Assembly (NCBI RefSeq): GCF_050753385.1
Contig: NZ_JBLZFZ010000032.1
Span: 50,594-82,593, forward strand
Reading direction: 5' to 3'
From: Pantanalinema rosaneae CENA516
Lineage (GTDB): Bacteria; Cyanobacteriota; Cyanobacteriia; Leptolyngbyales; Leptolyngbyaceae
Length of the DNA: 32,000 nt
Below are positions 9,886-13,400 of this stretch, piece by piece. The notes under the pieces were generated by a model. That model ran no database searches, was not told the origin of the DNA, and worked only from the letters and a program-made list of their open reading frames with translations. Made by a program: the position numbers and the translations under genes. Numbering within the stretch: the stretch's first letter is position 1; the number at the start of each line of letters is the position of its first letter.

Positions 9886-10380
9886 ATGTCCAACGATCGC
9901 CTAAGTCAACTCGATGAATTGTTAGACCTGTTGCGCGAACAGCAAGTAGCTTTAGAACGAGAGGCTTTGCTGACAACAGGATTGCCTAAAACCCAGGCAG
10001 AACAGCGATTACGGTTAGAGATTAAGCCGAAGCTACGGGAATATCAGCAAGAGTATTGGCAGATTTTGGCAGATCAGTCTACAGAAGCCCCGATCGCGGA
10101 ACCAGAGGCGGAAGTGATTGTGGCAGAAATTGTCGAATCGGTGGATCGGCTGGAAGTACAGCAGCAGGTTTGTCCGGCGGAAATGATGGGAATTTTGCTG
10201 GAACTGCGGGACAGGTTGAAGCAGCCCCAACCATCGGCAACGGTGAAGGTGAAATGGGCGTTTTCTGCCATGCCCCCGTTTGTGACACTGGCAACGGAAG
10301 GCGACTTGGATTTAGAGAAATTCTGGCAAACCAATTTTCCGACATTTAGAAAATGGTCTAAGGCACTGGCAAAAAAGTAG
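9886..10380 (+). CDS. 164-aa helical ORF, probably the N-terminal module of the downstream STAND NTPase (joined by a -1 frameshift at A_AAA_AAG)
   Basis: The ATG ORF ends ...GCA AAA AAG TAG at 10369-10380. The downstream NB-ARC frame is already open from 10362. The N-terminus is coiled-coil-like (LSQLDELLDLLREQQVALEREALL), followed by a short hydrophobic stretch (WAFSAMPPFVTLA). No family is recognised. Confidence 0.55.
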   Translation: MSNDRLSQLDELLDLLREQQVALEREALLTTGLPKTQAEQRLRLEIKPKLREYQQEYWQILADQSTEAPIAEPEAEVIVAEIVESVDRLEVQQQVCPAEMMGILLELRDRLKQPQPSATVKVKWAFSAMPPFVTLATEGDLDLEKFWQTNFPTFRKWSKALAKK

Positions 10381-10442
10381 TTGCCCAGGGTCAAAGTGGA
10401 GCCGATCCGGGGACGAAACTTCAGCAACCGATTCCACAAAAT

Positions 10443-13400
10443 TTGCTGCGTAGTGGGGTGAAGCAGTTTGTCGGGCGCGATCGCGCTTTAGCAACGTTGC
10501 AGGCTCAATTGGAGCGGGGCGATCGGGTCGTGATTAGTGCCATTCAGGGGATGGGAGGCATTGGCAAGACGGAGTTGGCGTTGCAATATGCGTTGTCGTC
10601 CTATCGGCAGCGACGGTATCCCGGTGGGGTGTGTTGGTTAGGGGCGCGAGACTTGGATGTAGGGACGCAAATTGTCTCGTTTGCTCAGAAACAATTGTCT
10701 TTGCTGCCGCCCGATGGAGAATTGGTGGATCAGGTAGACTTCTGTTGGCAACACTGGCGCGAGGGTAATGTGTTGGTGGTGCTGGATGATGTGACGGACT
10801 ATGCCGAGATTCAGTCCTATCTGCCGCCGTCTACCGAGCCTCGGTTTAAGGTATTACTCACGACGCGGCTGAATCTGGAACAGTCGGTGAGCCAAACGCT
10901 CCACATGCTGTCGCTGGATGTGTTGGAGGAAAAGGCAGCGCTGGATCTGCTGCGATCGCTGGTAGGAGCAGCACGAATTGATCGTCAATTGGCAGAGGCG
11001 CAATGGCTCTGTGAGTGGCTAGGCTATCTACCGTTGGGACTGGAATTAGTGGGGCGGTTTCTGATTGGTCAAGGTCAACAAGATTTATCTCTGACAGTAT
11101 TAAAACAGCGACTAGAAACCCAGCGGCTGGCAGCAAAGGCGTTGGCTAAAACCTATCCAGGGATGACGGCATCGCTGAATGTGGTGGCGGCGTTTGAGTT
11201 GAGTTGGCAAGAGCTAACTGAGTCAACCCAGGCGTTAGCTTACTGGTTGAGTTTGTTTGCGCTGACTCCGATCGCCTGGAAGCTCATGGCGGCAATGACA
11301 TCTGATGATGGGACGGAAGACCTGGAGGAAAACCGGGATGAGTTGCTGAATCTGCATCTGTTGCAACGGGTGGGAGAAGGCGCTTACCAACTGCATCAAC
11401 TGATTCGAGAATTCTTTCGTGCCAAGTTAGAGCAAACTGAAACGGCGGCAGCATGGAAGCAGACCTATTGCCAAGTTATGGTGCAGAGTGCCCAGCAAAT
11501 GCCGCAAAGCCCCACCATAGAGTTGATTCAGGCGGTGACGCTGGTCATGCCTCATTTAGCAGAAGCCGCCACCACCTGGCTTGCCTGGATAAATGATGAC
11601 GATTTGGCTTGGCTGTTTGTTGGTTTGGGACGGTTTTATGAGGGGCAGGGAGCCTATGCTCAAGCTGTTCCCTGGTATGAAAATTGTGTTTCTGTTACTC
11701 GCGATCGCTTAGGCGAGGATCATCCCGATGTCGCCACGAGTTACAACAACCTGGCGGGACTGTATGAATCGCAAGGACGCTATGCGGAAGCCGAACCCCT
11801 GTATCAACAAGCGCTGGCGCTGATGCAACGGCTGTTAGGCGAGGATCATCCCGATGTCGCCACGAGTTACAACAATCTGGCGGCATTGTACTATTCGCAA
11901 GGGCGCTATGCGGAAGCGGAACCAATGTATCAACAAGCGCTGGCGCTGCGGCAACGGCTGTTAGGCGAGGATCATCCCGATGTCGCCACGAGTTACAACA
12001 ATCTGGCGGCATTGTACTATTCGCAAGGGCGCTATGCGGAAGCGGAACCAATGTATCAACAAGCGCTGGCGCTGCGGCAACGGCTGTTAGGCGAGGATCA
12101 TCCCGATGTCGCCACGAGTTACAACAATCTGGCGGCATTGTACTATTCGCAAGGGCGCTATGCGGAAGCGGAACCAATGTATCAACAAGCGCTGGCGCTG
12201 CGGCAACGGCTGTTAGGCGAGGATCATCCCGATGTCGCCACGAGTTACAACAATCTGGCGGCATTGTACTATTCGCAAGGGCGCTATGCGGAAGCGGAAC
12301 CAATGTATCAACAAGCGCTGGCGCTGCGGCAACGGCTGTTAGGCGAGGATCATCCCGATGTCGCCACGAGTTACAACAATCTGGCGGCATTGTACTATTC
12401 GCAAGGGCGCTATGCGGAAGCGGAACCAATGTATCAACAAGCGCTGGCGCTGCGGCAACGGCTGTTAGGCGAGGATCATCCCGATGTCGCCACGAGTTAC
12501 AACAATCTGGCGGCATTGTACTATTCGCAAGGGCGCTATGCGGAAGCGGAACCAATGTATCAACAAGCGCTGGCGCTGCGGCAACGGCTGTTAGGCGAGG
12601 ATCATCCCGATGTCGCCACGAGTTACAACAATCTGGCGGCATTGTACTATTCGCAAGGGCGCTATGCGGAAGCGGAACCAATGTATCAACAAGCGCTGGC
12701 GCTGCGGCAACGGCTGTTAGGCGAGGATCATCCCGATGTCGCCACGAGTTACAACAATCTGGCGGCATTGTACTATTCGCAAGGGCGCTATGCGGAAGCG
12801 GAACCAATGTATCAACAAGCGCTGGCGCTGCGGCAACGGCTGTTAGGCGAGGATCATCCCGATGTCGCCACGAGTTACAACAATCTGGCGGCATTGTACT
12901 ATTCGCAAGGGCGCTATGCGGAAGCGGAACCAATGTATCAACAAGCGCTGGCGCTGCGGCAACGGCTGTTAGGCGAGGATCATCCCGATGTCGCCACGAG
13001 TTACAACAATCTGGCGGCATTGTACTATTCGCAAGGGCGCTATGCGGAAGCGGAACCAATGTATCAACAAGCGCTGGCGCTGCGGCAACGGCTGTTAGGC
13101 GAGGATCATCCCGATGTCGCCACGAGTTACAACAATCTGGCGGCATTGTACTATTCGCAAGGGCGCTATGCGGAAGCGGAACCAATGTATCAACAAGCGC
13201 TGGCGCTGCGGCAACGGCTGTTAGGCGAGGATCATCCCGATGTCGCCACGAGTTACAACAATCTGGCGGCATTGTACTATTCGCAAGGGCGCTATGCGGA
13301 AGCGGAACCAATGTATCAACAAGCGCTGGCGCTGCGGCAACGGCTGTTAGGCGAGGATCATCCCGATGTCGCCACGAGTTACAACAATCTGGCGGCATTG

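Follow-up and report, generated by a model that had tools for sequence, protein, structure and literature searches.

How is an NTPase translated when its reading frame opens within the end of a smaller gene, one base out of phase, and no conserved start codon is found for it? The question is raised by a locus in a window of 32,000 nucleotides (nt) from the cyanobacterium Pantanalinema rosaneae CENA516 (contig NZ_JBLZFZ010000032.1, positions 50,594 to 82,593; the window is this whole stretch, and positions without a locus name refer to it). On its forward (+) strand, an open reading frame (ORF) of 164 amino acids (aa), 9886..10380, ends with GCA AAA AAG TAG, and a long ORF continues in the -1 frame. 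An earlier note on this DNA offered three explanations: (a) frameshifting or slippage that yields both the 164-aa product and a fusion, (b) an indel that has made a pseudogene or a phase-variable switch, and (c) a sequencing error. Comparison with related loci strongly supports the first, through the heptamer, the hairpin behind it and the lack of a conserved start. Positions 10371-10412 probably form a cassette for programmed -1 ribosomal frameshifting of the dnaX/IS3 type: the slippery heptamer A_AAA_AAG adjoins the zero-frame stop, and a spacer of 6 nt separates the heptamer from a 9-bp hairpin. The locus combines a phased heptamer, conservation at synonymous sites and an overlapping long -1-frame ORF without a conserved initiation signal.

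The heptamer occupies 10371-10377 in the X_XXY_YYZ phase (codons GCA AAA AAG), as the earlier note had stated for the end of the ORF at 9886. The zero-frame stop TAG (10378-10380) abuts it and forms the first half of the spacer (10378-10383, TAGTTG). Read without a frameshift, the zero-frame ORF gives a protein of 19 kDa. The -1 frame is shut upstream by TAA at 10359-10361, three sense codons 5' of the heptamer. From 10362 it is open to 13898 and runs into the P-loop, again in agreement with the note; the translation reads GTGKKVVAQGQSGADPGTKLQQPIPQNLLRSGVKQFVGRD... (KKVVAQGQSGADPGTKLQQPIPQNLLRSGVKQFVGRD..GMGGIGKT up to the P-loop). The part that would be read after a shift, 10377..13901 (+), has 1174 codons and a stop and encodes a linker, an NB-ARC domain and a TPR array. 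The NB-ARC domain (PF00931, 10488..11153, residues 38-259 of the -1-frame product) scores 60.5 bits against a cut-off of 23.5, and the P-loop GMGGIGKT (10548-10571) lies inside it. The TPR array, the presumed sensor, occupies 11709..13614 and is made up of 15.1 copies, 99% identical, of a 126-nt unit; the domain search found 17 TPR units (TPR_12 stretches) in this ORF. With a P-loop NB-ARC domain followed by an array of sensor repeats, the product has the composition of a STAND/NLR-like NTPase of the NB-ARC clade. The predicted fusion has 1338 aa (151 kDa), where the earlier estimate was about 1336. The near-identical 42-aa TPR repeats, about 15 in number, may reflect a very recent expansion or an unreliable copy number in the assembly, both being possible.

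The heptamer by itself is not informative. Three copies of A_AAA_AAG are present in the whole window and 6.0 are expected, which is no more than chance, so the weight rests on its phase, position and conservation.

The query for homologues was the conceptual junction, in which the 164 aa are followed by 57 aa of the -1 frame. The 65 close homologues all come from filamentous cyanobacteria, including Leptolyngbya, Phormidesmis, Phormidium, Microcoleus and Coleofasciculus, and the nearest, the metagenome protein P0001, is 97% identical. Nearly all have 162-175 aa, two carrying N-terminal extensions. The matches span just the first 74-76% of the query, and the close family ends in ...FPTF..W.KALAKK plus zero or one residue. 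No in-frame extension past ...AKK into an NTPase was found in any of the 65. The comparison of orthologous loci that the earlier note had recommended thus returned the same heptamer and no close homologue fused in frame.

A scan of one genome per GTDB species produced 42 loci. In 32 of them the GCA AAA AAG junction is followed by a -1-frame ORF of at least 200 aa that opens 16-19 nt before the stop. Three loci (L017 from Nostoc, L019 from Stigonema, and L028) have a run of nine A (A9) replacing the six A and G of the heptamer (A6G), and their long ORF, too, is in the -1 frame. Two loci from metagenome-assembled genomes (MAGs), L010 and L040, have a run of seven (A7), and the fusion is in frame. 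The last five are without a downstream ORF, decayed or at a contig end. More examples of the cassette were observed on metagenome contigs (L043, L044, L047, L048) and on pCRI9333.05, a finished plasmid from the isolate Crinalium epipsammum PCC 9333 (L049). In total, more than 30 independent assemblies share the A6G junction, some with protein identities as low as 35-40%; finished sequences are among them, such as the Crinalium PCC 9333 plasmid, Stenomitos ULC029 (CP170648) and Microcoleus HSN003 (CP031705).

This recurrence bears on the possibility that the junction is accidental, whether through a homopolymer sequencing error of 1 nt or through a recent indel that created a pseudogene or a phase-variable switch. 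Homopolymers are indeed prone to error and mutation, and A7 is found in the two MAG loci. However, the same A6G junction in over 30 assemblies, finished genomes included, the lack of any close homologue fused in frame, and a zero-frame stop placed zero or one codon past the site in 32 of 34 A6G loci all argue against an accident. Both forms of it, held fully plausible in the earlier note, are now very unlikely.

In L010 (5643-5649) and L040 (6480-6486), the A7 run makes the domain encoded by the small ORF (below, the N-domain) continuous with the downstream ORF. The in-frame product of L010 passes directly into TPRs, without an NTPase. These loci may be true fusions or homopolymer errors of the MAGs.

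The conservation of the junction extends to the nucleotide level. The codon supplying the X of the heptamer is GCA in 32 of the 34 A6G loci (ACA and GGA occur once each), the final G is kept in all 34, and the base following the heptamer is T in 30. At other conserved alanine columns GCA makes up about one third. When 29 non-redundant loci were aligned by codon, AAA encoded Lys163 in 25 of 28 cases, whereas other invariant lysine columns were split about 50:50 between AAA and AAG, and codon choice was free at the conserved Phe, Pro and Thr residues of the nearby FPTF motif. Since GCA and AAA are fixed while the other Ala, Lys and FPTF codons vary, the heptamer is selected as a nucleotide sequence, even where proteins share no more than 35-40% identity. 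The KK C-terminus is present in the close members of the family and absent in distant members that have no cassette. The tail thus tracks the cassette, and the RNA signal, not a need of the protein, is the probable reason for AKK.

The -1 frame is closed 5' of the heptamer, at a distance of exactly three sense codons, in 26 of 34 loci (TAA in 23, TAG in two, TGA in one). This stop persists despite changes of the zero-frame residues (S-K, A-K, I-K, S-R, V-R, A-E). Judging from this pattern, the upstream stop looks to be under selection.

The ORFs that follow the cassette are of several types. NB-ARC with TPRs is found in the window, L002, L014, L021 and others, NB-ARC with DUF7779 in L001, NACHT in L018, L025, L031, L049 and others, nSTAND4 in the A9 group, and a transmembrane region with TPRs in L035 and L038; the partners in L027, L041 and L042 are of no recognised class. 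As several unrelated NTPase partners are always joined at the heptamer, the N-domain and the cassette together behave as a module.

These partners show little sign of a start of their own. In the 12 loci of the NB-ARC type, the conserved N-terminal motif of NB-ARC, (I/T)P(H/Q)NLP..G..FVGR(D/E), is encoded between the heptamer and the P-loop, and in nine of the 12 no ATG, GTG or TTG precedes it in frame. The first ATG lies at or past the P-loop in most loci. In the window there is no ATG before the P-loop in the -1 frame, as had been noted earlier; the candidate starts are not only TTG 10443 and GTG 10458, as then thought, but also TTG 10497, TTG 10509 and GTG 10530. The -1-frame peptide VVAQGQSGADPGTK is encoded wholly upstream of TTG 10443, and the peptide LQQPIPQNLLR begins upstream of it. 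The junction peptide expected after the shift is ALAKKVVAQ. No intrinsic terminator was found between the two ORFs in the window, which suggests co-transcription. Termination-reinitiation was considered and rejected, there being no -1-frame start codon near the stop in the window or in relatives.

The pair could also be two independent genes, with the NTPase starting at TTG 10443, GTG 10458 or later and the heptamer a by-product of Ala-Lys-Lys. Gene callers and RefSeq annotate such pairs separately, NTG codons do exist at 10443 and 10458, and initiation independent of a Shine-Dalgarno (SD) box is frequent in cyanobacteria. However, an Ala-Lys-Lys by-product does not account for codons that are fixed, unlike those of other Ala and Lys columns, or for the loss of the KK end in family members without the cassette. 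Nor does it account for a partner that is constantly in the -1 frame, opening at the heptamer, across unrelated classes of NTPase, for a linker motif lying upstream of any start codon in nine of 12 loci, or for the covariation of the hairpin described below. We consider two genes distinctly unlikely. Orthologous loci with two genes and a proper start and SD box for the NTPase, which the earlier note had named as evidence against a fusion, were looked for with a negative result.

An example of separate annotation is L049 (3230-5565), where RefSeq splits the pair into a "hypothetical protein" and a "NACHT domain-containing protein". The NACHT gene is started 170 nt after the stop, and the small ORF is called from an internal start. 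Two-gene annotation is probably a systematic error across the whole family.

In most loci a stem of 7-10 bp begins 4-6 nt past the heptamer. The stems of different clades are unrelated in sequence: ACCACGATC/GATCGTGGT, CTTCTCCTG/CAGGAGAAG, TCTCCCGATC/GATCGGGAGA, CCCCTCGA/TCGAGGGG, ACCTGGA/TCCAGGT, CCTCTGATC/GATCGGAGG and GCTCTTGAGC/GCTCAAGAGC. In 16 of 28 loci, against 1.4 expected, the 45 nt after the heptamer had a folding energy within the lowest 5% of 45-nt control windows from the same locus (Fisher p ~1e-13).

The hairpin was aligned in two ways, by MAFFT (19 sequences) and by fitting 39 sequences to a covariance model; the latter alignment, being fitted to this model of the structure, leans towards it. 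The cells of the 9-bp helix are paired in 81.3% of cases in the MAFFT alignment and 82.8% in the model-fitted one, against 30-46% and 29-49%, respectively, when the 3' partner is slid by 1-3 columns. Double, compensatory changes are seen at seven of nine pairs in the first alignment and at all nine in the second. The covariation score is 0.493 (shuffles: 0.256 +/- 0.031) for MAFFT and 0.436 (shuffles: 0.190 +/- 0.017) for the model-fitted alignment, and none of 500 shuffles reaches it in either case. The covariance model built from the MAFFT alignment has 39 hits at E<=1 in 458 kb, all of them cassettes and one per locus. The window has the best score (49.8 bits), and this is the only site found in it. 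A covariation-backed 3' structure, a 9-bp helix whose 6-nt spacer lies within the 5-9 nt sought for a stimulator, is thus present across the relatives, the copy of the window being a weak one.

The putative stimulator in the window is the hairpin 10384-10412 (+), with the 5' arm CCCAGGGTC at 10384-10392, the loop at 10393-10403 and the 3' arm GATCCGGGG at 10404-10412. Eight of the nine pairs form, with one A.G mismatch and a 6-nt spacer, in the register common to the relatives. The earlier note saw no convincing downstream hairpin, as this one is weak when the window is taken alone; it is nevertheless homologous to the conserved hairpin of the relatives. The pairing GTTGC/GCAAC (10380/10424) mentioned in the earlier note was discarded, since it is not the conserved helix. 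A role of the hairpin as an intrinsic terminator was likewise rejected, as there is no T-run and no terminator between the ORFs. A cmscan against Rfam of positions 9500-10700 at E<=1 gave only a chance miRNA match and no frameshift-element family.

The four loop-proximal pairs consist of two GATC tetramers in most loci (columns 22-25 and 76-79 of alignment A4; 10389-10392 and 10404-10407 in the window), and the outer five pairs carry the covariation. GATC is the core of HIP1 and a methylation site. The HIP1 octamer GCGATCGC occurs 31 times in the window, with 0.9 expected, which marks the DNA as cyanobacterial.

Neither two genes, nor an indel or pseudogene, nor a sequencing error accounts for the fixed codons, the covarying hairpin, a -1 relation that is constant across unrelated partners and the recurrence in more than 30 assemblies. 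Another rival is transcriptional slippage, in which RNA polymerase would add one A in the A6 run, so that a subset of the mRNA would encode the fusion in frame; the same proteins would result from different machinery. The nSTAND4-linked loci L017, L019 and L028 have A9 in place of A6G and no significant hairpin, a pattern like that of Thermus dnaX (PMC3711429), and two loci have A7 in the DNA, that is, the fusion frame. However, A6 is below the length at which A-runs slip efficiently (n>7, cited in PMC3711429), the last G of the heptamer is kept in all 34 A6G loci, and a covarying hairpin at 6-nt spacing is the signature of a ribosomal stimulator. At the A6 site of the window we therefore think transcriptional slippage unlikely, and prefer programmed ribosomal frameshifting.

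The A9 runs lie at 6484-6492 in L017, 6484-6492 in L019 and 6475-6483 in L028 (Nostoc, Stigonema and a Coleofasciculaceae MAG). By analogy, this nSTAND4-linked subfamily, in which no significant downstream hairpin was observed, has probably switched to transcriptional slippage.

Several points weigh against ribosomal frameshifting at 10371-10412. Firstly, the support is all comparative, and we infer from it both the occurrence and the efficiency of the shift. Secondly, the kinship of the loci inflates the significance based on shuffles, which is mitigated by the slid controls and by the unrelated stems. Thirdly, the window hairpin is weak: at -12.2 kcal/mol it lies at the 20th percentile of the same-locus controls, which is not significant. 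Fourthly, an SD-like 5' stimulator is not conserved. The weak upstream AAGG mentioned in the earlier note is present in the window, and it becomes AAAG, AAGC, GAGA and other sequences in relatives, so a dnaX-like SD stimulator was dropped as a candidate; it is a feature of dnaX that the broader class of -1 sites does not need. Fifthly, two possible starts, TTG 10443 and GTG 10458, precede FVGRD in the window, which is not so in most relatives; initiation without an SD box is common in cyanobacteria, and independent initiation at this copy is conceivable. Finally, a tRNA-Lys(CUU), if present, would lower slippage on AAG. No tRNA-Lys gene was found in the window or in the 49 loci, a result that is uninformative on the tRNA repertoire.

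The N-domain itself has no match in Pfam or NCBIfam. Its AlphaFold2 model, made with 61 sequences, is all-helical with seven helices (predicted local distance difference test score 91.8, predicted template modelling score 0.83). Comparison of the fold with the PDB and with the viral structures of BFVD gave no significant match (best E 0.86 and 1.1, respectively). Neither the N-domain nor the NB-ARC part nor the protein P0011 matches PADLOC-DB 2.0 at E<=0.01. The Pfam family EAD9 (PF19962) gives below-threshold matches in 12 of 61 members, with a best E of 0.0018; the window protein gives none.

A profile search of 1.8 billion representative proteins found about 300 family members at 50% identity representation (P0066-P0213 among them). 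The family is confined to filamentous cyanobacteria, and most members have about 165 aa. The domain also occurs at the extreme C-terminus of some TRADD-N, SEFIR/TIR, SNF2 helicase, LRR-Roc-COR, NACHT, VWA and EAD11 proteins. In a few distant members it is in frame and N-terminal to nSTAND1, TPR or Peripla_BP_6. The distant members P0111 and P0184 have in-frame equivalents of the proposed fusion, and the module of the window would be on the same polypeptide as its NTPase only if the shift occurs. This distribution suggests for the N-domain the role of an adaptor-like module similar to an "effector-associated domain" (EAD). The family has the spread of an EAD-like adaptor, yet it has no Pfam model of its own.

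An unusual member is the protein P0011 of Phormidesmis sp. 146-33 (L047, 6001-6969), in which the zero-frame ORF has a 157-aa N-terminal extension. The first helix of the extension is hydrophobic (MLETIPLLLATPIAKIIL...), and a stretch rich in Q, N and G (NVQQIFGGQGLQVNERQDQPIIQIQGNPTLHFG) is also present; the extension has no match in Pfam or PADLOC. After it come the N-domain and the same cassette, which leads into an NB-ARC ORF in the -1 frame.

If the cassette works as proposed, most ribosomes translating the 164-aa ORF would stop at TAG 10378 and release a free 19-kDa all-helical protein. Some would stall at the hairpin, 6 nt downstream, with tRNA-Lys on AAA-AAG. The lysyl-tRNAs could then re-pair from AAA-AAG to AAA-AAA, one base back, and translation would go on in the -1 frame, giving the product of 1338 aa with the N-domain, the linker, NB-ARC and TPRs of a STAND/NLR-like NTPase. 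The N-terminal module of the fusion would be the same polypeptide as the free small protein. The frameshift would set the ratio between a rare sensor and an abundant free N-domain, which may assemble on the oligomerised sensor, or regulate it, via like-with-like contacts. By analogy with EAD pairs, phage G/GT and IS3 OrfA/OrfAB, both products probably act in one complex.

Two roles of the free N-domain could be suggested by such analogies. It could be recruited or nucleated by the activated sensor: the sensor would cluster its N-domains, and these would nucleate the free copies in an amplification of the ASC/CARD type or of a prion-like kind. Alternatively, it could be a brake on the sensor, the free copies restraining the clustered N-domains like CARD-only or PYD-only inhibitors. 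On the evolutionary side, the portable module would have been recombined onto at least four NTPase classes, and one lineage would use the A9 signal of transcriptional slippage. The joint reading, in which all of this is a stoichiometry device for an NLR-like immune or cell-death sensor, with a portable N-domain and cassette and an A9 switch in one lineage, is tentative, and we think it rather doubtful that every part of it will hold.

The neighbourhood of the small ORF has some features of its own. Just upstream, at 4055-9620 (+), there are four tightly packed ORFs (452, 569, 374 and 408 aa). They have no Pfam match at E<=1e-4 and are not kept beside the cassette in the other inspected loci. 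Between them and the small ORF, an intergenic palindrome (9731-9823, arms 9744-9775 and 9792-9823) is rich in G5/C5 and holds nested CCCCC..GGGGG hairpins. It has no meaningful match in Rfam.

Programmed -1 frameshifting is rare among bacterial chromosomal genes that belong neither to mobile elements nor to phages; dnaX, copA and csoS2 are among the known examples. To our knowledge, the present case would be the first for the NLR-like/STAND conflict systems of multicellular cyanobacteria. Its mechanism is a familiar one, and novelty appears to lie in the gene family and in the biological context. In the literature on frameshifting combined with cyanobacteria, NB-ARC, NACHT, STAND or defence we found no description of this case. 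The family is not mentioned in the portions covered of the Antonov 2013 GeneTack survey (PMC3711429) with its supplements, the Atkins 2016 recoding review and the 2026 STAND NTPase survey. The portions covered of Kaur 2020 (PMC7159879) mention neither this family nor frameshifting.

If the prediction is true, a whole family with many paralogues would be added to chromosomal -1 frameshifting, and hundreds of gene pairs annotated as "hypothetical protein + NB-ARC/NACHT protein" would be mis-annotated single recoded genes. Studies of STAND proteins would gain natural adaptor-only and adaptor-sensor isoforms that are stoichiometrically coupled. For work on recoding, there would be dozens of natural hairpin variants, along with the switch between A6G and A9, in which the evolution of the signal can be followed.

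The closest parallel of the signal is E. coli dnaX (tau/gamma), which has the identical A_AAA_AAG, a stem-loop about 6 nt downstream as the 3' stimulator, and two products sharing an N-terminal part at a set ratio. There are differences as well. The shifted product of dnaX is the shorter one, as its -1 frame stops at once, whereas here it is eight times longer than the unshifted product; and the SD-like 5' stimulator of dnaX has no conserved counterpart in the present cassette. Thermus dnaX is expressed by transcriptional slippage on an A-run (Antonov 2013, PMC3711429), and the A9 lineage compared with the A6G loci parallels Thermus compared with E. coli.

In layout, the locus is similar to the insertion sequences (IS) of the IS3 family (IS911, IS150; OrfA/OrfAB), where a short ORF ends just past A_AAA_AAG and a 3' structure follows (PMC5009743 and general knowledge). 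In both cases a long downstream ORF in the -1 frame lacks an efficient start of its own, and the fusion bears the N-terminal module of the short protein. However, the present downstream ORF encodes a STAND NTPase (NB-ARC, NACHT, nSTAND4) and not a DDE transposase, the upstream ORF is not a helix-turn-helix protein, and there is no sign of mobility, although terminal inverted repeats were not searched for. An IS element was accordingly rejected as a candidate: the downstream ORF is NB-ARC with TPRs in the window and NACHT, nSTAND4 or others in relatives, with no DDE transposase. The phage tail assembly chaperones G/GT also have a -1 shift near the end of a small ORF and short and extended products with a common N-terminal core, and these act together at a fixed ratio (mentioned in PMC13581612; general knowledge). 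The proteins are unrelated, though, and the context here is not that of a phage, the N-domain having no viral or PDB fold match.

In terms of protein architecture, the nearest analogues are the EADs, small non-enzymatic adaptors found on core NTPases and on separate partners and thought to interact like with like (Kaur et al. 2020, PMC7159879). The helical domain described here is similarly found on STAND and other NTPases and on separate proteins, with fusions to TRADD-N, SEFIR/TIR, VWA, Roc-COR and EAD11. A classical EAD pair, however, is encoded by two genes, whereas here the free and the sensor-fused copies would be produced from one recoded gene.

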